Origin: Opitutales bacterium
GTDB lineage: Bacteria; Verrucomicrobiota; Verrucomicrobiia; Opitutales; PNEW01
Direction of reading: 5' to 3'
NCBI GenBank assembly: GCA_965197745.1
Contig: CBDANS010000006.1
Coordinates: forward strand, 608,001 to 672,000
DNA length: 64,000 bases
Under the pieces are notes generated by a model that was given only the letters and a program-made list of their open reading frames with translations, was not told the origin of the DNA and searched no databases. Position numbers and translations under genes: made by a program. This document shows positions 17,440-58,273 of the stretch, piece after piece. Numbering within the stretch: position 1 is the stretch's first letter; each line of letters opens with the position of its first letter.

Positions 17440-17826
17440 TGATTGGACCCCGTTTTTCGTACCAATTATTAAGTGAGAGAGTTCCCGGGTATTAATGGTT
17501 TTAGGATTGATGTATATGAGAGATCTTGGCGAAGTGAGGGCGTAGCCCGAACGCGGCCAAGATCTGAAAGGAATGTGACAAACTCTTGTGGGCTTTTAAA
17601 GCCTAAACGACTGTGGGGATGATCATGGTTATAGGTCTGGCGCCATTGTTCGATTACAACTTGTGCTTCAGCCACGCTGAGCAACACTTCACGGTTCAAA
17701 CACTCATCGCGTAAGCGGTTGTGAAACGACTCGATGAAACCGTTTTGCCAGGGACTGCCCGGATCGATATATATCGCCTTGATCTTTTTGTCGGACAACG
17801 ACTGCTGCACTTGATGAGCAATGAAT

Positions 17827-17858
17827 GGCTTCGCATGTCGTCGCTTCGCTCCTCGGAA
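17827..17858 (-). repeat. micro-insertion TTCCGAGGAGCGAAGCGACGACATGCGAAGCC in the SDNGS-E-F codon
   Basis: Absent from the homologous site at ~58195-58220; identical to 48610..48641 and 55418..55449. Confidence 0.95.
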
Positions 17859-17986
17859 CACTGCCGTTGTCACTACGGATATAGCTGGGAGCTCCCTCCT
17901 TTTCAATGGCCTCGCTAAGCACAGAGAGGACATCCGATGAGGGGAGTTCACGAGCGACCCGGATATCCAGACATTCACGCGTATAT

Positions 17987-18029
17987 GTCTTCGCTTCGCT
18001 TGAGTGTCGTCGCTTTCAGCTCCTCGGTA
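17987..18029 (-). repeat. micro-insertion TACCGAGGAGCTGAAAGCGACGACACTCAAGCGAAGCGAAGAC in the TLID-E-Y codon
   Basis: Empty allele ATCGATGAATATACG at ~55282-55296 and ~58074-58088. Confidence 0.95.
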
Positions 18030-18854
18030 CATCGATCAGAGTCATCATCTTTAATGGACCGCCATGGTCTGTGCGATCATGGACAAAGTCCCAGGACCAA
18101 AGGTGATTGCGACCGGTTGCTTTAGTAGGCGACCCCGTAGAGACCCCTTGACGGTGTCTACGCTTTTTAGGTGGCTTTACCTGCAACCCTTCTGAACGTC
18201 GTACCGCCTGAACAAACTTCCTGTTTGTTGTCCAGCCTTCCTTTACGAGCAAGGCACGGATGCGCCGGTAACCGTAGCAGGGATGTTCCCAGGACAGGGT
18301 TACAATCCGCTCGGCCAACCGCTGAGCTTTCTTACTGGCCTGCTTGGGCTGGTAGCTGAAAGTTGACCAACTGAGGCTGAGGTAGGAACAAGCCCTTCGC
18401 AACGAGCACAGCCCTCTCTCAGCCGCATCTTTTACTACTCGCTTCTTCTGCTTGGGGCTCACCACTTTTTTGACAGCGTTTCCTCCATTACCTGATTCTT
18501 AAGCATTTGATCAGCGAGCATCTTCTTCAACTCGGTGTTTTCTTTTTCCAGCTCTTTAAATCGCTTCGCATCGGCTAGTTCCAAATTGCCATACTTTTTA
18601 CCCCAGCGATAGAAGGTCTGTTCACTCACGTTGTTGCCTCGGCAGATTTCCTCTACCGTTTTTCCGGTATCGGCTTGCCGCAGTATTGCGATGATCTGTT
18701 CTGTTGTGTATCTTTTTCTTTTCATGAGGTTATCTGTTTATCCCGATAACCTCTCTCTGTTAATGATACCATTTTTGGGGGTCACTCCATCCTAGGCAAC
18801 GGCCCTAACTATTTTGATTCGGCCTTATTTAATGTCCATCCGACGTATGGAAAA

Positions 18855-46663: not shown

Positions 46664-47716
46664 TCAGGCATATTGCACGAGAATCTCGACATGATCCAGC
46701 CGCGGAGTCACGCAAATCGCCGGGTTGAGGCATTCCACGTCGATCTTCAATTCATTCTGGCCGAGCCTCAAGACATCGGGCGGCACGGGATAAGTCATGC
46801 GGGTAAAATTGTCCATGATAAACTGCGCCCGAGTGCTCCGCGCATCTCCCGGCAATAGCCTTCCGTTAACTGAGACCTCATACTCATCCGGCTGCGTGAA
46901 GTTGTGTACCTGCAAGTGCAAGGTGACTCTCGGCGACAGCGCCCGTTGCCGCGCCGCTTCCAGATCATCGGCAATCCCGAACGGGATGACGTGTGACCCA
47001 ACCGACAGCTCCACAGGGAGCACGATCGCGTCGATACCCCGGTAGATCCTGTGGTTCTGTCCCGATTCAGCGCCCTGGTTTGGCGCGCGCGGATGTGAAT
47101 CGAGATCGTAATCGCAGTTGAGAAAGGCAATTGCGCCCGGATCGTGGATCTCGCGCAGCACACGATAATAATCCGGGTGCAGATCGTCGTACCAGACCGT
47201 CCCTGTTCGCTCGGATTGCGGTGGCGTATCTTTTCCGTGTCCGTAGAGCAAGTGCCCGTAGTTGAACAGTTGCAGACCATGCGCTCCCCGGTGATACATT
47301 AACTTGGCCCAGGCGCGGGTCACTTCCGTCCTTCTCCAGTGGTTCGCGCAGGGGAAAATCCAGCAGTCATGCCCTTCGACCAGTTCCAACCACGGACCGA
47401 GGTCCATATCGAATAACATGTATCCGGCGCCAGGCGCAACGGCGTCGACCAACCCCTCATTTACCCACGTGCGCACGTCCATTCCTCGTTGCCAGCACGT
47501 GTCGATATCTGCCACGACACGCACATGCAGGTACATGGGCCGACCACGTTCGCTGCTCACGCGGTCCAGAATCTCGCGCGTCTGCCGTACCATGTCCGTG
47601 ATAAGCGCAGCGTTTTCCGCCTTGCCGAACTCTTTGAAGTAGCGAGGATCGCGGTCGAAATAAAGCGCGACGCCGTCGTTGTCCCATCGGGTGATGAACT
47701 CCTCGATGATGGCCAT
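46664..47716 (-). pseudogene. glycoside-hydrolase-like TIM-barrel protein, 5' part removed at the IS3 boundary
   Basis: DGVALYFDR, GMDVRTWVNEGLVD, GAHGLQLFNY; the ORF start lies inside the IS left IR. Confidence 0.65.
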
Positions 47717-49034
47717 TGGTCGTGACCACGAAAACTGGTACACTTGAAAAGTTAGTCTGGGTAACCTAGAAAGGACTCAGACAATGAAAGGCAAAAGATA
47801 CACAACTGAAGAGAAAATACGGATGCTGCGGCAGGCGGACAAAGGGAAAACGATCCTGGAAGCATGCCGCGAGAACAACATTAGCGAACAGACTTTCCAC
47901 CGCTGGAAGCGTGAGTTTGGGATGATTGATGTCGACCAGGCCAAGCGGATGAAGGAACTCTTTGAAGGAGAACGCGCGGTTAAAACGGATGCTGGCGGAC
48001 AAGATGCTGGGGATAGAGATCCTGCAGGAGACCCTCGAAAAAAAACTGTAAGCCCTGGGCACAAGCGGCAAGTGGCAGAGAGACTTGTGGCTCGGGGCCA
48101 GTGTTCGATGCGAGCGGGGTGCCGGTACTTTCGGCTGCACCGTTCCACCTATGCGTATAAGGCGAAGCATCCGGATGCCTGGTTAATGAAACTGAAGGCG
48201 GCAGTAAGGCGGTTATCACGGCAATATGCCAGGTGGGGCTATCCGAAGATCACGAAGCTGTTGAAAGACGAAGGCTGGGAGGTGGGTAAACGTCTCGTGC
48301 AAGGTCTACGACGCGAACTGGGCTTGGCGATCCCCCAACGCAAGCCAAGACGTCGGGGCAGGGGTGTTTCCACCGGGCTGCCGACCAAGGCCGAACATCC
48401 CGGCCATGTTTGGACCTGGGATTTTATCCACGATAAGACGGTCCGCGGTGGCAGTTTAAAAATGTTGACCGTGCTCGATGAGTACACCCGCGAGTGTCGA
48501 GTGATCCATGTTGATCGCCATATCAATGCGGAAACGGTGCGCGGTATCATGCAAAAACTGCTTGCCCGTCATGGGCCGCCACAATATATTCGCAGTGACA
48601 ACGGTTCCGTTCCGAGGAGCGAAGCGACGACATGCGAAGCCATTCATTGAAAAGGAATTGAGAGCCTGGCTAACTGCGATGAAAATCAAAACCCTCTATA
48701 TCGAACCAGGAAGCCCTTGGCAGAACGGATACATCGAATCGTTGCATGCCCGTTTTCGCGAGGAGTGTTTAAACCGTGAACAGCTATGGACTTTGACCGA
48801 AGCCCGCGTGGTGATCGAGGACTGGCGCTGGCTTTACAATAATGTCCGACCCCACCGCAGCCTCGGCAATATCACCCCACGGTGCTTCGCTGAAGACATT
48901 AATACCGAAGGCTTGGGCTCCATTCGGGCTACGCCCTCATTGCGCCCAAGCCTTGACTTCCTCTACCAACTTAACTTCAACATTAACCTCTCCAGACTAA
49001 CTCTCTCGGTGGACCAGTTTACGTAACCCGATCA
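47717..49034 (+). mobile_element. IS3-family element, subfamily B (extra T in orfA; micro-insertion in orfB)
   Basis: IRs TGGTCGTGACCACGAAACTGGTACAC / GTGGACCAGTTTACGTAACCCGATCA; WTWDF, SDNGS, PGSPWQNGYIES. Confidence 0.92.
48610..48641 (+). repeat. 32-nt micro-insertion identical to 17827..17858
   Basis: AAC GGT TCC G[insert]A TTC ATT. Confidence 0.95.
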
Positions 49035-49086
49035 GTACTAATATAGGTTGGGACTGATTTTAAAATAAAGTTAATCAATACTGAAA

Positions 49087-49887
49087 ATGATTATCAAAAG
49101 AAAGAATTTCGTATTCGCATCAATAACTTGGACGATCTCCGGTTTATGTCTTTTTACTAATGTTTTTTGTAATCAATTATCAGGAAGCTATGATAAGAAC
49201 TTTGAACCCTTTTTTAATTCTAAAATTAGTGAAATATCAGATTTGAATAAAAAGGAGGAATTAGAGAATCTTTTCAGTCAAATTGTATCATTACGTGACA
49301 TGCTTCGTGGCCGCGGCATAAATGATCGTGGCACTAGCATAAATAATGAATATGAAGATTTAACAGTTAGGCTTTCAGAAAAATTGAAGCAAGCAGTTAG
49401 GCAAACGGATATCCGAGCTGCATCGACATTTCTTTTTGACACAGTCGAAGATAATTACAACCGCCAGGCAGGACTATCTGCACTTCGTGAATATCAAGAA
49501 TTTAAAATCACTGATATTGAGTTACTCAGTAAGTTATATGTATCTTTAGACTACGAGGACAAAAATCACCACTCGGATAGACGATGGGTTGTACCTTCTA
49601 TTGCAAGAGCCCAACTATCACGTTGGATAGAATACGTGCTTGGTTTAGGAAATGTAGACTCTGCTCCAGCAAAAGAGAAGTATTCTAATCCAAGAAAGTG
49701 GTTAATAAGTAACTTGGAATTAGCGAAACAGTTAGATCAGAATAAAGATTTTTTACCTCTTATTGAGAGTAGCCTAGAGGCTGTACAAATAAACTATGGT
49801 ATTATCAATTCTGTTAAAATAAAAAAAGATAATGTTGATCGGACCCCGTTTACTGTACCAGAGCCCGTGTTAGATCCATCAGGATAG
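49087..49887 (+). CDS. AT-rich secreted hypothetical protein, 3' end cut by an IS end at 49836
   Basis: Signal-like N-terminus; last ~17 codons read through IS terminal sequence. Confidence 0.6.
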   Translation: MIIKRKNFVFASITWTISGLCLFTNVFCNQLSGSYDKNFEPFFNSKISEISDLNKKEELENLFSQIVSLRDMLRGRGINDRGTSINNEYEDLTVRLSEKLKQAVRQTDIRAASTFLFDTVEDNYNRQAGLSALREYQEFKITDIELLSKLYVSLDYEDKNHHSDRRWVVPSIARAQLSRWIEYVLGLGNVDSAPAKEKYSNPRKWLISNLELAKQLDQNKDFLPLIESSLEAVQINYGIINSVKIKKDNVDRTPFTVPEPVLDPSG

Positions 49888-50870
49888 TAAGAGTTTTGAT
49901 TTGCTTAGATATGGCTCTCTGGACGTATTCGGCCGGAGGCCGATAGCCCAGAGAACTGTGGAGTCTTTGAGTATTACAATCAAGGCGTCCGGCTTCAGAT
50001 TTTCTATCACATTGGAGTGACCCTAAAAATCGCATCATTTTCAGAGAGAAGTTATGGGGATAGACAGTAAGCTCAATGAAAAGAAAAAGAGAGCCAACAA
50101 ACAGATTATAGCAATACTGGGGCGAGCAGATACAGGAAAGACGGTAGAGGAAGTCTGCTGTGGCAAACAAGGTTAGAGAAAAGATCTTACACTGATTGAA
50201 TCGGGAGTTGATGATGATCGATGGGGACCAGGCCAAGCGGATGATGGATTGGGAAGGGAAAACACACTTGAAGCGAATCCTAACGGATACGATGCCTGGT
50301 GCGGAGATTGTACAAGAGGCGCTGGGCACAAGCAAGAAGCGGTTGAAAAGTTTGTGTCTCGGGATCGCTGTTCGATGCGTGGGGGGGTCAATATTTTCGT
50401 TTTTACCGCTCTGCCTATTCCTATAAGGGGAAGTATCCTTATGCTTGGTTAACAAAGCTGAAAGCAGCGGTGAGATGTTTGTCACGACAATACACTGGAG
50501 ATAAGGCTACATCAAGATCACGAAGCTGTTGCAGGAGGAGGGGGGCGTTAAGGAACCGATGGTGCATGGGCTGCGCTGTCAACTGGGCTTGGCGATTGCG
50601 CTCCATAGACCGAAACATTGATGCAGGGGCACTTCCACTGGCTTGCCAACTGCGACCGAGCATCCCAGCCATCGTCCTTAGTTGGGACTTTATCCACGAC
50701 AAAACGATTCGCGGGGAGCGATCCAAAATAGCTGGCTATCCATAATGAATATACGCGTGAGGTTCTGCTTATCCACGTCGAGCGTCTCATTACCACCATG
50801 AGCGTGCGATCATGCAAAAGCAGATCGACACAGTCACGGGGCTCCATGCTATTATAGCAGCGACAACTCA
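49836..50870. mobile_element. degenerate IS3 fragments (subfamily C right end on minus; A/B mosaic on plus from 50013)
   Basis: Similarity to 57145..57300, 54523..54700 and 47900..48600. Confidence 0.8.
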
Positions 50871-51237
50871 ACGAGCGATAGCGAGAATAACAAACAGATC
50901 TATTGAAGTATTGTACTTGTTGCAACTTGATCTGACAGACACTGCTTGATCAAATCACAACTCGGTCAGGCAAAAACATTTATAGTTTTCTTCTCAACTT
51001 CTAATCAAATAATAAGTTATCGTCGTGGAGTGCCCCAAAAAAATCCACTCGAAAATTCTTGGCCGATTCCTGGCTGAAGATCAGCATAAAAGTATGATTC
51101 CTGCCCATTCCTGCCAAACATTTTGAGGCAAGGTCAGGAAATTAGAGGAAAATATAAATTATTATTGGGTCGTTATTTAAGTGTAACTAATTTTTAATAA
51201 GTATCTTATAAGGCATTATTGAGTCCCGTTCATAGTC

Positions 51238-51537
51238 GGTTTCATCGAGTCGTTTCACACCGTTTACGCGATGAGTGTTTGAACCGTGAAGTGTTGCTCA
51301 GCGTAGCTGAAGCCCAAGTTGTAATCGAACAATGGCGTCATAATTACAATAATGAACATCCCCACACTCGTTTAGGCTTTAAAAGCCCACTAGAGTTTGT
51401 CAGATTCCTTTCCGATCTTGGCCTCGTCGGGCTAGGCCCTCACTTCGCCAAGATCTCTCATATACATCAATCCTAAAACCATTAACACCCCGATACTCTC
51501 TCACTTAAAAATTGGTACGAATAACGGGGTCCGACCA
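51238..51537 (+). mobile_element. IS3 subfamily A right-end fragment
   Basis: RLRDECLNREVLL (empty RDEC site) through the IR ..ACGGGGTCCGACCA. Confidence 0.88.
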
Positions 51538-52449
51538 CTTACCCTCCACAATCATCAAGTCCTCAATGGCGGAGAGAATAACATCCAATTCTCGATGATC
51601 GATTGTATCTAATGGCGATTGAAAATAATTTCGGATCGTCGCACTTCGAATAACGCCGCGACGTCTGAGTACTTCCTTGTAAAGCTGCAACGGGTAGAGA
51701 GATTGCATATTCAGGAGAGGAAGCAAGCGATCGAATAAACGCCGTGCTTTTGCAGCATCACCGCGCTCATAAGTATTCCATATCGCTGCATGCACATCCG
51801 GAATATCGCAAGCCGGCATCGTCCCGCACACTCCCCTGGCCATCTCGTTCATCATGTGCCGGCCGGCCAATCCACCGAATATCCCGTGCAGCTTTTCTTT
51901 ACGCTGAACAAGCTCGAAAAGTTTCGAAACCACATGCGTGCAGAAAAGAGATTCCTCCTTGATATAATGAATATGTTCAATCTCATCGATGAGACGCGCC
52001 ATAAATTCCGGACTCATCGGTGAGCCGACGAAGATGGAGTTTTGAACAATAACGGGAACTTCGGTTGCTGCACCAATGGCTTCAAAATAGCGATATATCC
52101 CCTCACTGTGCAGAGGCTTGATTGGTGGTGACATTGCCATGATCCCATCGGCGCCCAATCCGTTCATCGCCTTCGTCAACTCTGCGGCTGCGTGCGCAGA
52201 CACTCCGCTAGCGACGAGGACTACGGGGATTCGTCCATTCGCCTGTTCACAAACAATGCGGCTGACAAGTAGTCGCTCTTCATCCGAGAGTGCGAAAAAT
52301 TCACTGACATTCGCAGGAACTACCAACCCATGCGCACCCACATCAATGCTAAAATTAACAACCGAGCGAAGAGACTCTTCATCAATACTGCCATCTTCAT
52401 AAAAAGGTGCGACAAGAATAACGTATACACCGCGAAATTTATTTCCCAT
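51505..52449 (-). CDS. dihydrodipicolinate synthase (DapA/NanA) family lyase; C-terminus runs into the IS end
   Basis: GVY..LVAPFYEDGSID, SEFFALSDEER, YIKEES Schiff-base Lys. Confidence 0.88.
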   Translation of the reverse strand: MGNKFRGVYVILVAPFYEDGSIDEESLRSVVNFSIDVGAHGLVVPANVSEFFALSDEERLLVSRIVCEQANGRIPVVLVASGVSAHAAAELTKAMNGLGADGIMAMSPPIKPLHSEGIYRYFEAIGAATEVPVIVQNSIFVGSPMSPEFMARLIDEIEHIHYIKEESLFCTHVVSKLFELVQRKEKLHGIFGGLAGRHMMNEMARGVCGTMPACDIPDVHAAIWNTYERGDAAKARRLFDRLLPLLNMQSLYPLQLYKEVLRRRGVIRSATIRNYFQSPLDTIDHRELDVILSAIEDLMIVEGKWSDPVIRTNF

Positions 52450-52493
52450 ATTATGGACGAGTCAAAAGATCAAAACGTCAAAAAGAATTAACC

Positions 52494-53534
52494 ATGTACA
52501 CTTTAGAAGAAGATCTCCAAGAGATAATTGAACAAAGCCGCGTTGAGCTTGGGTCTTCTGGGATTATAGCTCGTGTGGAGACTGATGACTTTTTCTGGTG
52601 TGGGACATCCGGAATATTAACTTCCACCGACATTGATAGAGGATTCTACATTTGCAGTCTTAGTAAAACATTCACCGCAATTCTGGTAATGAAGCTTCTT
52701 GAAAATGGTAAACTAAAATTAGATGACCGAATTTCAATTTATCTCAATAAGATTAGCCCGTTTCAGAATATTACTATTAGGCAATTGCTAAATCACTCAC
52801 ATCGTATTCCAGATTATACAAGCTTTGATAACTACGAAGATGAAGTAAATAAATCTCCACATAATCCATGGTCGCGGGAATACATCTCTTCAAGAGCGAA
52901 AAAGATCGGCCTTCTGGAATCTTCGGACGGGAACTGGTCGTACTCAAATACTGGATACATGTATTTATATCAAATAATTGAAATTGTCACTGGGCAAAGT
53001 TATGTCGATGCTATTGACGAACTGGTTATCAAGCCACTCGGGTTTCAATACACGTATGTTGCTACTAAGATCGATAAAGGCAAAATTCTGATTCCAGCCT
53101 ATGACCAATATTTCTCTAAATATGAAGGAGACATACGTTGTCAATATCACCCTGACTGGTGTGCTACGGGTGTACTTGTATCAAATGTTAAGGAAGTATG
53201 TTAACTTTACAGAAAACTGTTAGAGGGTTCCATCCTATCAGAAGAGTCAATGCAAGAAGTATTAGAAGGAGTCGAAACACCTTACTGGGTTGGAGGACGA
53301 GAAGCGTTATACAATGGCAAGTTGAGTTATGGCCTTGGCATAAGAATCTGTAGAAAATTCCCTCTTGGTCCCTTTTTTGGTCATGGAGGAGATTGCCCAG
53401 GCTATTCGATTTGGGCTGGATATATAGATATTTCTGGCGGTAAAAATATAACGAGCTGTGTAGTCTGTAATAGCAGCCTTAAATTTCCACCAGCCGAAGT
53501 TTGGATGAAACTGATCAATCGTGTAGTGGAGTAA
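52494..53534 (+). pseudogene. serine hydrolase (beta-lactamase/D-peptidase family) with an in-frame TAA at 53202
   Basis: SLSK (SxxK), LLNH, YSN, HGG all in the same frame. Confidence 0.85.
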
Positions 53535-53643
53535 TAGAGGGAGTGTAAATAGAAATCATATTTTCTTTAACTCTCTCTCAATTATTGAAGCAATACTTTC
53601 AGGTGTTGCTGTAATAGCGACCACCAGTGCATTTTGGGGCTCC

Positions 53644-54159
53644 TCAAGAGTATTGTTTGTTGAGCTCCCAGCCGCCTTTTGTCTTTAGCGTAACCCTGAT
53701 ATTTCCATGTATATCCGTTCGAAAGACTTTGTCTCCCTGTTTCGATCCAGCGCTGCCGGTTTCGTAGAACTCCAAGGCCTTCTCTTCCGGATGACCAAAC
53801 GAGTTGTCTCCGACAGACACGATCGTAACGTCAGGACTGATCTTACGCAGATGATCTAGATAGTAATGTTTCTTGTCTCTTGGATCGTCGAAAAAGGTCA
53901 ACGATCCGTGATGGCTGGCGAGTAGCAGTGACGAACTGAGCGATTCTACATCGTAACTCCTCACTATACTGTACCTCCACGCAACTGCACTTGAATCGCC
54001 GGTGAGCATCATGCTTCCAAGAACTGCACCGTTCGCAGGTCGCCGTTGTTCTACTTTTATAACGATGCTTTGGGCATTCGCATCTGTATCCAAGGCATCA
54101 TTCTTGGAGTTCATTATTCTGAGTCGCGTGTTGCCGAAATCCCAGCGTTTCATTGCCTC
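53644..54159 (-). pseudogene. ComEC/Rec2-like metallo-beta-lactamase-fold protein, 5'-truncated by IS
   Basis: SIVIK, MLTGD, ASHHGS, SVGDNSFGHP, RTDIHGNI. Confidence 0.8.
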
Positions 54160-54522
54160 TGGAGTGACCCCAAAAAATCGTATCACTTACCGTGAGAGGT
54201 TATCGGGATAAACAGATAACCTCAATGAAAAGAAAAAGATACAGAACAGATCATAGCAATACTGCGGCAAGCCGATACAGGCAAGACGGGACAGGAAGTC
54301 TGCCGTGGTAACAACCTAAGCGAACCGCCCTTCTATCGGTGTGGTAAAAAGTCAATCAATTAGGGGTTACCTATAAGTGTGCTTACAGGATGGGTAAACA
54401 AATACGGAAGCTACTTAATGATAATATTGATCCTCTCAATAGTGTAGTTGAACTTGATGAAACCTATTAAGGGGCTAAAGAAAGCAACAAACATTAGCAT
54501 AAAAGGACCCGGTATACACAAG
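54160..54522 (+). mobile_element. IS3 subfamily A left-end fragment followed by an IS1595 transposase remnant
   Basis: TGGAGTGACCCCAAAAAATCGTATCA plus the orfA start; then YKCAYRMGKQIRK..VVELDETY with stops. Confidence 0.8.
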
Positions 54523-55417
54523 TGGTGTGACTCCTAAAAATCGTATCATTTACCGAGAGAGGTTATGGGGATAAACAGATAACCTCAATGAAAAGAAAAC
54601 GATATACAACAGAACAGATCATAGCAATACTCCGGCAGACCGATACGGGCAAGACGGGACAGGAAGTCTGCCGCGGCAACAACCTAAGTGAACAGACCTT
54701 CTATCGCTGGGGCAAAAAGTATGGCAACTTGGAGCTGGCCGATGCTCTAGCGATTTAAAGAACTGGAAAAAGAGAATACCGAGTTGAAGAAGCTGCTCGC
54801 TGATCAAATGCTCAAGAATCAGGTGATGGAGGAAACGCTGTCAAAAAAGTGGTGAGCCCCAAGCAGAAGAAGCTAGCAGTAAAAGGTGCAGTTGAGAAAG
54901 GGCTGTGCTCGTTTTAGAGGGCTTTTGCCTATCTCAGTCTCAGAGTTTTGGTCAACGTTCAGCTACAGGTCTAAGCAGGCCAGCAGGAAAGCTCAGCGGT
55001 TGGCCGAGCGGATTGTAACCCTGTCCTGGGAACATCCCCGCTACGGTTACCGGCGCATCCGTGCCTTGCTGGTGAAGGAAGGTTGGGCGGCGAGCAGGAA
55101 ATTTGTACAGGCAGTGCGACGTTCTTCGGGCTTACAGGTAAAGCCACCGAAAAAGCGTAGACACCGTCAAGGAGTCTCTACAGGGTCGCCTACTAAAGCA
55201 ACCGGTCGCAATCACGTTTGGTCCTGGGACTTTGTCCATGATCGCACAGACAATGGCGGTCCATTAAAGATGATGACTCTGATCGATGAATATACGCGTG
55301 AATGTCTGGATATCCGGGTAGCTCGTCAACTCCCCTCATCGGATGTCCTCTCTGTGCTTAGCGAGGCCATTGAAAAGGAGGGAGCTCCCAGCTATATCCG
55401 CAGTGATAATGGCAGTG

Positions 55418-55449
55418 TTCCGAGGAGCGAAGCGACGACATGCGAAGCC
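55418..55449 (+). repeat. 32-nt micro-insertion identical to 17827..17858
   Basis: AAT GGC AGT G[insert]A TTT ATC. Confidence 0.95.
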
Positions 55450-55571
55450 ATTTATCGCTCATCAAGTACAGCGGTGGTTGCGTGAAAAAAACATCAAGGC
55501 GATATATATCGATCCGGGCAGTCCCTGGCAAAACGGTTTCATCGAGTCGTTTCACAACCGCTTACGCGATG

Positions 55572-55607
55572 TACCGAGGAACGTAGTGACGACATAGCGA
55601 AGCGCTC
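55572..55607 (+). repeat. micro-insertion TACCGAGGAACGTAGTGACGACATAGCGAAGCGCTC in the RLRD-E-C codon
   Basis: Empty allele CGCGATGAGTGTTTG at ~17697-17711 (minus) and ~51267-51281. Confidence 0.95.
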
Positions 55608-55999
55608 ATGTTTGAACCGTGAAGTGTTGCTCAGCGTGGCTGAAGCGCAAGTGCTAATAGAACAATGGCGTCAGACCTATAACAATGAACATCCCCACAG
55701 TCGATTAGGCTTTCAAAGCCCACAAGAGTTTGTCAGATTCCTTTCAGATCTTGGCCGCGTTCGGGCTACGCCCTCACTGCTCCATGATCTCTCATATACA
55801 TCAATCCTAAAACCATTAACACCCGGTAGTTCTCTCACTTAATAATTGGTACGAATAACGGGGTCCGATCACTCTCACTATTCACTTCTAATTATCGTCC
55901 TTTTCCTGAACTTTCTTCACCGACATCAGCCACAGATGGTTGTTGACAAGATTTGGGGATCGGTAACGAACGCCATCCAGGAAATGATTCGGGCGTCGG

Positions 56000-57097
56000 C
56001 TACAGATCCAATCCGATACCAAATATGAACTGGAAATCGTTTTCCTCCGGTTCCTTACCGGTGGCGTCGGGAATAGGATTCGCTGTCCAGTCCCATACAA
56101 AGGAAACATTAAGGTTGAGCCTGTTTGTAATCTCGAACTCGATGCTTGTTATGGAATGTGAAATAACTCCCCCGGAAGCTTCGTCGGCATAGCGTAACTC
56201 ATAGATTCCGTTCAGATCCAGCCATTCTGTGATCTCCGTTACGAAATGGGATCCGACTGAGAACGAGAGCGCCTCATCGCTTGCCTGTTCTCCGACCTGC
56301 ACGGTGGAGAACCGTGTCAATTGATAACTGATTTCTGTCGTGGTATCCCATTCCGTTTTTGAGTTTCTCTTAATGTTGTAGCCGACCCCTGCGCCAAGAG
56401 AATAGCGGTTATCTATGTTTTGAAAGGGATTCGCGAAAGACTCAATGGCGAAGGGGCGAACGAAAAATTTCTTTGTAAAAGAAATATCGAAATATGAATT
56501 AGTGCGATGACTATTGGCCGTTTCTATTCCCTCGGTTTTACTGAAAGTTCCGATGTAATCGAAGTAGAAGCGGTTATTCGCGGTTCGATGCTGGATCGTC
56601 ACCAAGGTATTCCAGTCGGCTTGTTCGGTGTTTCCGCTCCCAATGTTCGCGCCGACGGTGGCTTTTGCGGACCACAAGTCCAGTTTCTTGGGGCTCCCAG
56701 CAGCGATTGAAAAAACGTCTGAGCGATTTATTACTAGGTCTTTCTCCGACTCCGTAACCACGAGTTCATCTCCTTTCATAAAGAGTTTGCCAGTTGCAGT
56801 TTGTCGATCTCCATAACGGACCATTTGCGATCGTGCCGAGTGCATCTGCGCTACATCGTCCCAATCGATGTCGAGGAGGCCGAGTTTGTCGCTGTCAAAC
56901 TCGACGGTGTAATCATACATCTCTTTAATTTCACCCTTTAGCCACTCTCCCGAGGTCAACTGGATCCAGTCGAACTCATCGGGTGGTGGTGGTAGTGGAC
57001 TCCATGCGGCGTAGTTCCCCATTGGAACGCCGAGAGAAAGGAGAGAAATGGAACTGACGAGTCGAATAAGGTACATTTTCTGTCCGAGACTTCTCAT
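56000..57097 (-). CDS. DUF481/YdiY-like outer-membrane beta-barrel protein
   Basis: DWIQLTSGEWLKG, SGNTE, alternating beta-strands, C-terminal FGIGLDL. Confidence 0.8.
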   Translation of the reverse strand: MRSLGQKMYLIRLVSSISLLSLGVPMGNYAAWSPLPPPPDEFDWIQLTSGEWLKGEIKEMYDYTVEFDSDKLGLLDIDWDDVAQMHSARSQMVRYGDRQTATGKLFMKGDELVVTESEKDLVINRSDVFSIAAGSPKKLDLWSAKATVGANIGSGNTEQADWNTLVTIQHRTANNRFYFDYIGTFSKTEGIETANSHRTNSYFDISFTKKFFVRPFAIESFANPFQNIDNRYSLGAGVGYNIKRNSKTEWDTTTEISYQLTRFSTVQVGEQASDEALSFSVGSHFVTEITEWLDLNGIYELRYADEASGGVISHSITSIEFEITNRLNLNVSFVWDWTANPIPDATGKEPEENDFQFIFGIGLDL

Positions 57098-57144: not shown

Positions 57145-58273
57145 TGACCTGCACCCTTATGCTGTACCAGAGTCAGTTTTAAATCCAGCAGGGTGGCAAG
57201 GGTTTTGATTTGCTTAGATATGGCGCTCTGGGCGTATTCGGCCGAAGGCCGATAGCCCAAAGAACAGTGTCGTCTTTGAATATTATAATCAAACCTCCAG
57301 GATTCAAGTTACTCTTTCACTTCAGCTAGCGTACAAAATATCTTGGGGTTAAGAAGTTCATCTTGTAAGCGTCCATTGAAGCTCTCAATATAACCATTTT
57401 CTACGGGTCTGCCTGGCTGGATGAAATACAGATGGATACCTTGGGTGTAAGCCCACTCATCCAATACTTTGCCGGCAAACTCGGGGTCATTATCGACGGT
57501 AATGGTTTGAGCAAGACCGATTCCTTCAGCGGCTTTCGCCAGTGCAACGGTAACTTTACGTCCACCGATGGAGGTATCGGCCAGAAGCAGTGAGCAAGCT
57601 CGGGTATCCTGACCGACAACGTTGAAAATGCGCAAAGGGGTGGCCGTTAGCCAACTGACCTGCTCCCGATTACTGTACCAGAGCCAGTGTTAGATCCGGC
57701 AGAGTGGTAAGGTTTTTGATTTGCTTATCTTAGCCTCAGTGGGACAAGGTTCAGCTACCGGCCCAAGCAGGTCAGTAGGAAAGCTCAGCGATTGGCCGAA
57801 CGGATAGTGACGTTGTCCTGGGAACATCACCGCTACGGTTAGCGGCGCATCCGTGCCTTACTGGTAAAAGAGGGCTGGACAACAAGCAGGAAGTTTGTCC
57901 AGGCAGTACGACGTGCAGAGGGCTTACAGGTAAAGCGAACGAAAAAGCGCAGACCCCGTCAAGGGGTCTCAACATGGCTCCCCACTAAAGCAAAAGGACA
58001 CAATCACGTTTGGTCTTGGGACTTTGTCCATGATCGCACAGACAATGGCGGTCCATTAAAGATGATGACTCTGATCGATGAATATACGCGTAAATGTTTA
58101 AGCCACCGGGTAGATAGACAGCTCACCTCAACCGATGTCCTCTCGCTACTCAGCGAAACCACCGATGAAGAGGGAGTTCCAAGCTATATCCGCAGTGATA
58201 ATGGCAGTGAGTTTATCGCTAATCAAGTAGAGCGGTGGTTGCCCGAAAAAGACATCAAGGCGATCTATATCGA
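57145..58273. mobile_element. nested IS3 fragments (subfamily C on minus, 57145..57730; subfamily A on plus, ~57735..58273)
   Basis: TVDNDPEF..PGRPVENGYIESFNG; two C-type ends at 57145 and 57656; the A fragment has uninterrupted IDEY and SDNGSEF. Confidence 0.85.

Follow-up and report, generated by a model that had tools for sequence, protein, structure and literature searches.

An identical 32-nt sequence that breaks the transposase genes of two divergent IS3 lineages in an Opitutales genome is probably the body of a 33-nt non-coding micro-element, which would have been inserted site-specifically as a discrete unit and which would belong to a family of 33-46-nt elements restricted to the Opitutales. 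Within the window (the whole 64,000-nt stretch of DNA that was analysed, C6:608001-672000 of a 4.45-Mb genome in 7 contigs that is 92% complete) the 32-mer (TTCCGAGGAGCGAAGCGACGACATGCGAAGCC) occurs three times, at 48610-48641 (+), 55418-55449 (+) and 17827-17858 (-), each time with 0 mismatches, and in 0 of 100 dinucleotide-preserving shuffles was a window match to it obtained. The IS3-family elements of the window and the micro-elements that they carry, the latter designated by type, are the following:

47717..49034 (+), IS3-family element of lineage B, 1318 nt, TG...CA ends, orfB broken by a type-1 micro-element
48610..48642 (+), type-1 micro-element in the B copy, 33 nt, TTCC...GCCA, delimited by alignment of filled and empty copies
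54523..55871 (+), IS3-family element of lineage A2, 1349 nt, broken by type-1 and type-3 micro-elements
55418..55450 (+), type-1 micro-element in the A2 copy, at the same codon
55572..55608 (+), type-3 micro-element in the A2 copy, 37 nt, TACCGAGGAACGTAGTGACGACA...CTCA
17440..18789 (-), IS3-family element of lineage A1, 1350 nt, broken by type-1 and type-2 micro-elements
17826..17858 (-), type-1 micro-element in the A1 copy, at the same codon
17986..18029 (-), type-2 micro-element in the A1 copy, 44 nt, TACCGAGGAGCTGAAAGCGACGACACTCAAGCGAAGCGAAGACA
58209..58212 (+), empty type-1 site (G AG T) in a decayed fragment of the A lineage

The insert and its IS3 hosts

The host elements were assigned to the IS3 family from a run of six to eight A at the end of orfA, TG...CA ends and 4-bp target duplications. 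The motifs W-D-F, SDNGxEF and IES...R, which we take to be the rve-type DDE core motifs of the IS3 transposase, can be read directly in the host IS3 sequences, and a Pfam match to rve/rve_3 was obtained only for a neighbouring fragment (57309-57635). The type-1 site is presumably the Glu codon directly after the second catalytic Asp motif (SDNGxEF). In the B copy, the type-1 element (the 32-mer plus A) stands in place of the AR of the Glu codon that follows S-D-N-G-S, a net gain of 31 nt. In this copy, frame 0 opens at the orfA start and is closed by a TGA 7 nt beyond the insert (ORF 47784-48650), whereas the C-terminal part of orfB is encoded in a different frame (48508-49026). A TTT-for-GA change at 47961-47963 of the same copy joins the orfA frame to the orfB frame.

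The initial annotation had placed one identical 32-mer at the homologous codon of IS3 subfamilies A and B, which the three exact copies in the window confirm, and the flanks are those that it gave (GGTTCCG, insert, ATTCATTGAA in B; GGCAGTG, insert, ATT(C/T)AT(T/C)GCT in A). It was also right that an A fragment near 58200 carries no insert, since positions 58200-58212 of the window read GGCAGT GAG TTT ATC, and that A and B have diverged widely: the 150-aa N-terminal part of OrfB is 49% identical between them over 132 aa. Nucleotide similarity between A and B (blastn) is confined to about 180-200 nt around the insert, at 73-76%, a value that is raised by the insert itself. The TTCCG TTCCG repeat that had been remarked on upstream in B is present in the sequence, but it is a chance product of the Gly-Ser codons GGT TCC plus G rather than a target duplication, since no repeat of this kind exists in the A lineage.

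Filled and empty sites and the replacement rule

The 29-nt core of type 1 was found in 73 copies in the genome at up to 3 mismatches (52 of them exact; 0 for the reversed-pattern control), and all 73 are placed after the S-D-N-G-x codons of IS3 orfB, with GGCAGT, GGTTCC, GGATCG, GGTTCG or GGTTGC to their left. A tblastn survey of the genome returned 95 orfB sites of the type-1 kind, 72 of which are filled by a strict pattern, and empty sites with an intact Glu codon were found in both the A and the B lineages of this same genome. Lineage B' comprises 13 copies with about 7 variable positions in about 1300 nt, nine of them filled and four empty; the empties read GGTTCC GAG TTT ATT and the filled copies GGTTCC G[TTCC...GCC]A TTC ATT, a difference of G[33 nt]TTC versus G[AG]TTT. 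Empty copies of the A lineage read GAATTC, GAGTTC or GAGTTT, the last of these at 58209-58214 in the window. From the filled and empty copies in lineages B' and A it follows that the type-1 unit is 33 nt long (TTCC...GCCA) and replaces the AR of a Glu codon that stands before T (GAR followed by T), with a net gain of 31 nt and a frameshift.

The other types found in orfB obey the same rule, in that an AA or AG dinucleotide is swapped for the element in one orientation and without target duplication. At three of the four orfB sites the dinucleotide belongs to a Glu codon that stands before T (G-AR-T); the remaining site is C-AA-A. Type 2 takes the place of AA in the Glu codon of L-I-D-E-Y (net gain 42 nt, including an in-frame TGA; 30 filled junctions genome-wide), type 3 the AG of the Glu codon in R-L-R-D-E-C (net +35; 7 filled junctions genome-wide), and type 5, at 44 nt, an AA at the orfB site TGG C[AA]AA (P-W-Q-N; net +42), where 11 of its 12 core matches are found. 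When neighbouring megablast alignments were chained, 92 sites emerged at which a copy has a surplus of 15-70 nt over a paralogue, a count biased to IS3 in a genome whose repeats are mostly IS3; 84 of these surpluses include the core motif, and type 5 accounts for 6 others. Type 4 lies within palindromes in which the T-arm of a tRNA is repeated in inverted form ahead of the acceptor 3' strand and CCA. These palindromes are located directly downstream of tRNA-Asn and tRNA-Gln, and like contexts occur in two other genomes (G033 and G070).

All types share a common plan of T(T/A)CCGAGGA, a hairpin, GACGACA, a linker, GCGAAGC, a tail and CA, with a total length of 33-46 nt. Members of the CCGAGGA...GAYGACA pattern in the window's genome lie inside IS3 orfB in 117 of 121 cases, as single units in the sense orientation.

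Folding of the elements and a possible role in RNA

In 19 of the 25 distinct variants, at least 2 bp can form between the two ends of the stretch bounded by CCGAGGA and GAYGACA. In 1000 shuffles the number of variants that do so averages 3.4 and never exceeds 10, and in the real elements GC...GC is exchanged for AC...GT, a covariation that preserves the hairpin. Nearest-neighbour DNA folding gave -1.6 kcal/mol for type 1 (z +1.19; 189 of 200 shuffles fold as well), and types 1, 2 and 4 fold no better than shuffles in such thermodynamic predictions. Folding was weakly better than in shuffles for type 3 (z -1.37) and for the whole tRNA-linked palindrome (z -1.58). The argument for a hairpin is thus one from 2-3-bp stems and covariation only. 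In DNA, GCGAAGC may fold into a mini-hairpin of exceptional stability, and tandem sheared pairs may arise from GA...GA.

A conserved core with a covarying hairpin between GA...GA may resemble ribozyme cores in outline, and the family is also found within tRNA T-arm-like hairpins beside tRNA genes. Both would be in keeping with a very small intron-like or self-cleaving element whose excision or processing from the transcript leaves the filled genes working. We consider this extremely unlikely, given that the AR is missing from the DNA, so that no contiguous deletion from the transcript restores the Glu codon. In addition, RNA-library contigs that lack the insert carry an untemplated AG, which identifies them as the empty allele and not as a splice product. 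The filled form is present among these sequences too (they are contigs and not raw reads, and may include DNA carry-over), and no splice-like joint was found in the RNA-library contigs, uncovered bins being uninformative. Searches of Rfam gave no family match at E up to 5 over positions 47600-56000 of the window and none at E up to 1 at the tRNA-linked loci, which also speaks against such an RNA.

Insertion, common ancestry or conversion between lineages

Site-directed insertion in place of common ancestry, the reading put forward in the initial annotation, is borne out by the empty sites in both lineages, by the sharp A/B boundaries and by the orfB tree. The sequence shared by A and B ends at most 1 nt to the left and at most 8 nt to the right of the insert (3 nt in A2): the bases on the left stay lineage-specific (TTCC in B versus CAGT in A), and on the right A and B have just ATTCATTG in common, reduced to ATT for A2. 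Because the shared segment stops so near the insert, there is neither a co-conversion tract, the search for which had been proposed as a check, nor an ordinary A/B crossover. On the orfB tree (85 copies with at least 45% tblastn identity to an A or B query, insert columns masked, the other 10 of the 95 sites dropped) the filled or empty state of type 1 changes 8 times, with 6 of the changes forced by well-supported branches, which is the outcome of the comparison of transposase phylogeny and insert presence that had been proposed; on the same 85-copy tree the state of type 2 changes 5 times and that of type 3 changes 4 times. Among the B' copies, insert state and the orfA TTT/GA polymorphism occur in all four combinations, and because of this, part of the 8 changes on the tree is gene conversion within lineages and independent insertions can be counted only as one per deep lineage.

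The description of the insertion as recent holds only in a relative sense. Two species from a different genus of the same family likewise carry the identical insert at this codon, within flanks of the A, B and C types (12 copies in G032 and 14 in G060), so that either the colonisation is not very recent or IS copies move between genera. In comparisons of these with the nearest copies in the window's genome, the flanks are 85-99% identical (at least 90% in 13 of 14 comparisons) and the insert differs by 0-1 nt; judged from these alignments, the insert is conserved across genera no better than its flanks, and selection on it is neither shown nor needed.

It may be asked whether a single original insertion was spread over the IS3 copies, including the step between A and B, by ordinary gene conversion or crossover. 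Conversion clearly occurs, as is seen from the combinations of B' state with TTT/GA among near-identical copies; the filled B' copies carry TTC after the insert, like lineage B, and the B' empties TTT, and A/B chimeras joined at the insert exist. A homology-anchored tract would nevertheless have carried the lineage-specific flank bases along with it, and nucleotide homology between A and B can be detected over no more than about 180 nt around the site. Moreover, three further types follow the AR-replacement rule at three other codons, which a single accident does not explain. For the A/B step conversion is already disfavoured on these grounds, and as an account of the whole pattern we regard it as unlikely. 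Still less probable, in our view, is that the insert was present in the A/B ancestor and was kept as a working part of IS3 (a recoding, bypass or regulatory signal), with the empties representing losses. The predominance of filled copies in the A/B clade (72 of the 85 orfB copies on the tree, only 13 being otherwise), the fact that filled copies have multiplied and the failure to find an intact A-lineage orfB in this 92%-complete genome would be in line with a working part. But the Glu codon of the empties is a clean GAA or GAG, and any loss would need to have restored it precisely, uninterrupted transposase frames are seen in empties only, and the insert splits orfB over two frames and brings a stop 7 nt downstream. 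The insert is also 100% identical where the proteins are 49% identical, which excludes inheritance from an A/B ancestor unless constraint was strong, and the lack of any better preservation than that of the flanks across genera argues against such constraint.

An origin in assembly or polishing, by which a collapsed repeat would have been copied into unrelated IS copies, is the least credible of the alternatives and has a negligible probability, even though highly repeated IS copies are prone to misassembly. Contigs from runs of other studies join the insert to A-type flanks (X15, X10; with loose ends at 48609), and a single X15 contig (record 14) bridges the insert in a B-type copy, which disposes of the concern about polishing raised in the initial annotation; the same arrangement is found in two other genomes. 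Site-specific insertion of a discrete micro-element therefore remains our preferred reading.

Consequences for the IS3 copies

The only uninterrupted transposase frames in the genome are those of the 4 empty B' copies, two of which have orfA/orfB and two a fused 403-aa frame, and no intact orfB of the A lineage was found in the 92%-complete assembly. Target duplications of 4 bp surround 5 of 24 full-length filled B copies and 6 of 19 full-length filled A copies. The suggestion that filled copies had transposed with complementation in trans is upheld, because these copies bear fresh 4-bp target duplications while intact frames exist only among the empties. The identical inserts also serve as portable homology that produces A/B chimeras and deletions. 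One such chimera (C7:1673777) is of lineage A upstream and B downstream, two loci in G032 (L157 and L162) have B upstream and A downstream, and at C6:1393328 type 1 is joined to type 3 with loss of the stretch between the two inserts.

Distribution

A degenerate pattern for the family matched 19 of 201 Opitutales genomes, from 10 of 104 genera, with 0 matches to the reversed-pattern control everywhere. Exact type 1 was seen, among the matches listed, only in the family to which the window's organism belongs. In the scan of named genomes, 7 of the 116 matches listed have the GT(A/T) prefix plus a hairpin (L054, L080 twice, L083 and L152 twice), and the bona fide carriers at three of these loci, those other than L152, are Pelagicoccus mobilis, a Puniceicoccaceae MAG and a Coraliomargaritaceae MAG, all three of them Opitutales. 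The named-genome matches listed are mostly chance matches in high-GC genomes and say little on distribution outside the order.

A possible mechanism and candidate enzymes

Our data show discrete elements that enter a few exact sites in a single orientation, each replacing AA or AG without a target duplication; the type-1 element shifts the frame and truncates the transposase. The sites are conserved codons, and for this reason one and the same element has entered IS3 lineages with only 49% protein identity. Once filled, IS copies are non-autonomous but go on multiplying as passengers with the transposase of the few intact empty copies, and the elements spread mainly by hitch-hiking on IS3. As the elements encode nothing, they would have to be inserted by an enzyme acting in trans, whether this belongs to the host or is itself mobile.

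Our guess is that such an enzyme may act on a folded single strand, in the manner of REP/RAYT systems or of the 'peel and paste' of IS200/IS605. To our knowledge, no chemistry other than this 'peel and paste' is well understood by which single-stranded units of so small a size are moved. In detail, the replacement of 2 nt contradicts single-strand chemistry of the REP/RAYT or IS200/IS605 kind, as the HUH single-strand transposition that we know of inserts without loss of target bases. The genome has one match to Y1_Tnp, in a single RAYT-like gene that scores 66.6 bits against the NF047646 cut-off of 80 and encodes a protein of 198 aa, compared with about 330 aa in relatives. No family motif was found within the 3.3-kb locus of this gene, and a REPtron layout was rejected for it on account of the lack of a flanking motif; in another genome (G038), no listed Y1 gene is located within about 10 kb of a listed element. 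RAYT-like homologues are present in 15 of the 19 motif-bearing genomes versus 44 of the 182 others, counts that include kin and are not independent. The RAYT-like gene and this co-occurrence lend weak support to the guess of a single-strand enzyme.

Two other kinds of enzyme were considered. Target-primed reverse transcription can delete 2 bp of its target, and it was rejected as a source of the inserts with 0 matches to PF00078 in the window's genome (92% complete). Tyrosine integrases are represented by 14 matches in the genome; the one integrase element that was traced inside an IS3 copy (C7:1066519) was rejected, being placed at the I-E-S codons (ATCGAATCG, T-loop-like) and not at a micro-element site, with an end that has no family motif. 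Inspection by eye for base-pairing or similarity between the variable tails of the elements and the target flanks revealed nothing convincing.

Comparison with known small repeats

The family belongs with the REP/SDR kind of micro-repeat, although the evidence for site specificity at the level of the codon is unusually clean. Like REPs and REPINs, which are associated with RAYTs, the elements are non-coding repeats (20-45 nt in that group) with a short stem-loop and conserved unpaired tags, present in tens to hundreds of copies, that encode no protein and cause no target duplication, and the genome has one single-copy RAYT-like gene. The accessible part of one survey describes REP superfamilies tagged with GTAG and with CGTC and reports GTAG REPs inside genes of Opitutus terrae, a member of the same order (Di Nocera et al., 2013; PMC3733652). 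The elements described here have a 5' end of GT(A/T)C and, on the reverse strand, TGTCGTC adjoining the hairpin of 2-3 bp. REPs are recognised by a palindrome with a stem of about 6-9 bp or more and a GTAG or CGTC terminal tag, whereas the stems here reach 2-3 bp in 19 of 25 variants. REPs are also characteristically extragenic and arranged in inverted doublets (REPINs), while 117 of the 121 members in this genome are intragenic single units and the RAYT-like gene is unflanked. Unlike REPs, the elements are almost confined to the transposase genes of IS3, where they occupy four exact codons, always point the same way and replace 2 nt.

The SDR1-8 repeats of heterocystous cyanobacteria, which Elhai and co-workers are said to have described in 2008, are reportedly mobile repeats of 21-27 nt with a predicted hairpin, often nested in other repeats. 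They come from another phylum and have another sequence. The present family differs further in its greater length (33-46 nt) and modular build, and its clean pairs of filled and empty sites set the AR-replacement rule and the codon-level site specificity. With IS200/IS605 elements and PATEs, the family has in common a hairpin and strand- or orientation-specific insertion without target duplication. Those elements insert 3' of one fixed tetra- or pentanucleotide, and no target bases are lost; here the left flanks end in ...CCG, ...GTG, ...ATG, ...TCG or ...GGC, so that the element is preceded by G or C, and AA or AG is replaced at the four orfB sites. Rickettsia palindromic elements (RPEs; 100-150 nt) and other intragenic REPs are likewise small repeats within protein-coding genes, but RPEs are in frame and tolerated in the protein, whereas the elements described here break the frame or bring a stop. 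A classification as MITEs does not suit them either, as T(T/A)CC... at one end and ...CA at the other do not make up inverted repeats and the pairs of filled and empty sites show no duplication.

There is also a resemblance to the CGTC repeats of the NTS/dRS3 type, which are cut by Ssn single-strand nucleases (PMC11893778). As far as the accessible part of that source goes, NTS repeats are short hairpin repeats with a CGTC tag that are recognised as single-stranded DNA by a small host enzyme, and the reverse strand of the elements here reads TGTCGTC and then the hairpin. In the same part of the source, NTS differ from our elements in having a stem of 8-9 bp (ATTCCCGCG...), in being extragenic and in acting as a cleavage target that modulates transformation, not as an inserted unit (PMC11893778). 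Our literature searches brought up no account of elements like these, either from IS3 genes or from Verrucomicrobiota.

Implications

We put forward, as a speculation that is more probably wrong than right, that the micro-elements may be a dedicated hyperparasite of IS3 or a host-side system for its taming, in which an enzyme would read the codons of the DDE core and the look-alike tRNA T-loop and would swap a dinucleotide for a folded single-strand cassette of 33-46 nt. If this were true, the transposase would be knocked out and most IS copies made non-autonomous, with truncated and possibly inhibitory proteins as products, and the portable homology would reshuffle IS lineages. It would also amount to a new insertion chemistry, in which a dinucleotide is exchanged for a unit of less than 50 nt, and to a new layer of parasitism on bacterial transposons.

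How REP-like and other repeats of less than 50 nt move is a long-standing question, for which clean filled and empty sites are rare. The genome studied here supplies dozens of exact filled/empty pairs at four codons, which lead to a simple, testable rule (T(T/A)CC...CA in exchange for AA or AG, in one orientation and without duplication); the donor is likewise defined, as is the target, which is a fragment of IS3 orfB. The pairs also document a parasite-on-parasite dynamic in which 72 of 85 IS3 transposase genes of the A/B clade have been knocked out at one codon and the broken copies still spread in trans, and in which identical inserts fuse IS lineages that are otherwise non-homologous. This has a bearing on the damping of IS bursts in symbiont genomes and on the annotation of 'pseudogenised' transposases.

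Micro-elements beside tRNA genes and related modules

Micro-elements, the short non-coding inserts found at exact codons of IS3 orfB, also occur in G000, the genome that contains the window, within units located 3' of tRNA-Asn and tRNA-Gln:

C6:355520-355700 (locus L009, 723-900), tRNA-linked units
C5:236520-236610 (locus L010, 728-812), tRNA-linked units

In each unit the T-arm of the tRNA concerned is repeated in inverted orientation, with the micro-element at the T-loop position, and is followed by the 3' strand of the acceptor stem and then CCA. The unit stems match the T-stem of the adjacent tRNA, being GCAGG/CCTGC in one case versus CTAGG/CCTAG in the other, and similar tandem units are present in two further Opitutales genomes (G033 and G070). 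A T-loop-like sequence, ATCGAATCG, is the insertion point, at the I-E-S codons of orfB, of an element carrying a tyrosine integrase gene in the IS3 copy C7_1066519m:

C7:1066100-1066250, locus of the tyrosine integrase element insertion

A shorter relative of ~23-24 nt, GTACCGAGGA CGAAG TCCGACAT, lies in intergenic regions of G000 amid heptamer-like repeats (..CAATCG..), with example sites at:

C6:1235010
C6:1383123
C6:810740
C7:386789
C4:194702

In the Opitutales genome G038, micro-element modules are joined in series within a MITE-like composite repeat of ~150 nt (loci L028, L031 and L033-L036), in the order GTTCCGAGGGAGCGAAAGC.., TACCGAGGAGCGGATGCGACGACACC.. and GTTTCGAGC..GCGACACC...

Other features of the window and the orfA-orfB fusion

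A candidate gene remnant, probably a truncated gene, lies between the B and A2 copies:

52494-53204 (+), gene remnant candidate

A short IS3 orfA-like piece (54300-54480; ctgccgtggtaacaacctaagcgaac...) immediately precedes the A2 copy, which places the A2 element in or beside older IS3 remains.

Near the orfA 3' end of the B copy, TTT replaces GA (47961-47963), and the change recurs at the equivalent position in other copies of the IS3 lineages B and B'. Both forms are present within B and likewise within B', and both were found in public-run contigs. The fused orfA-orfB frame is 403 aa in two of the empty B' copies (empty copies being those with an intact Glu codon). Since the replacement adds a net one base, the orfA frame continues directly into orfB, without a programmed -1 frameshift.
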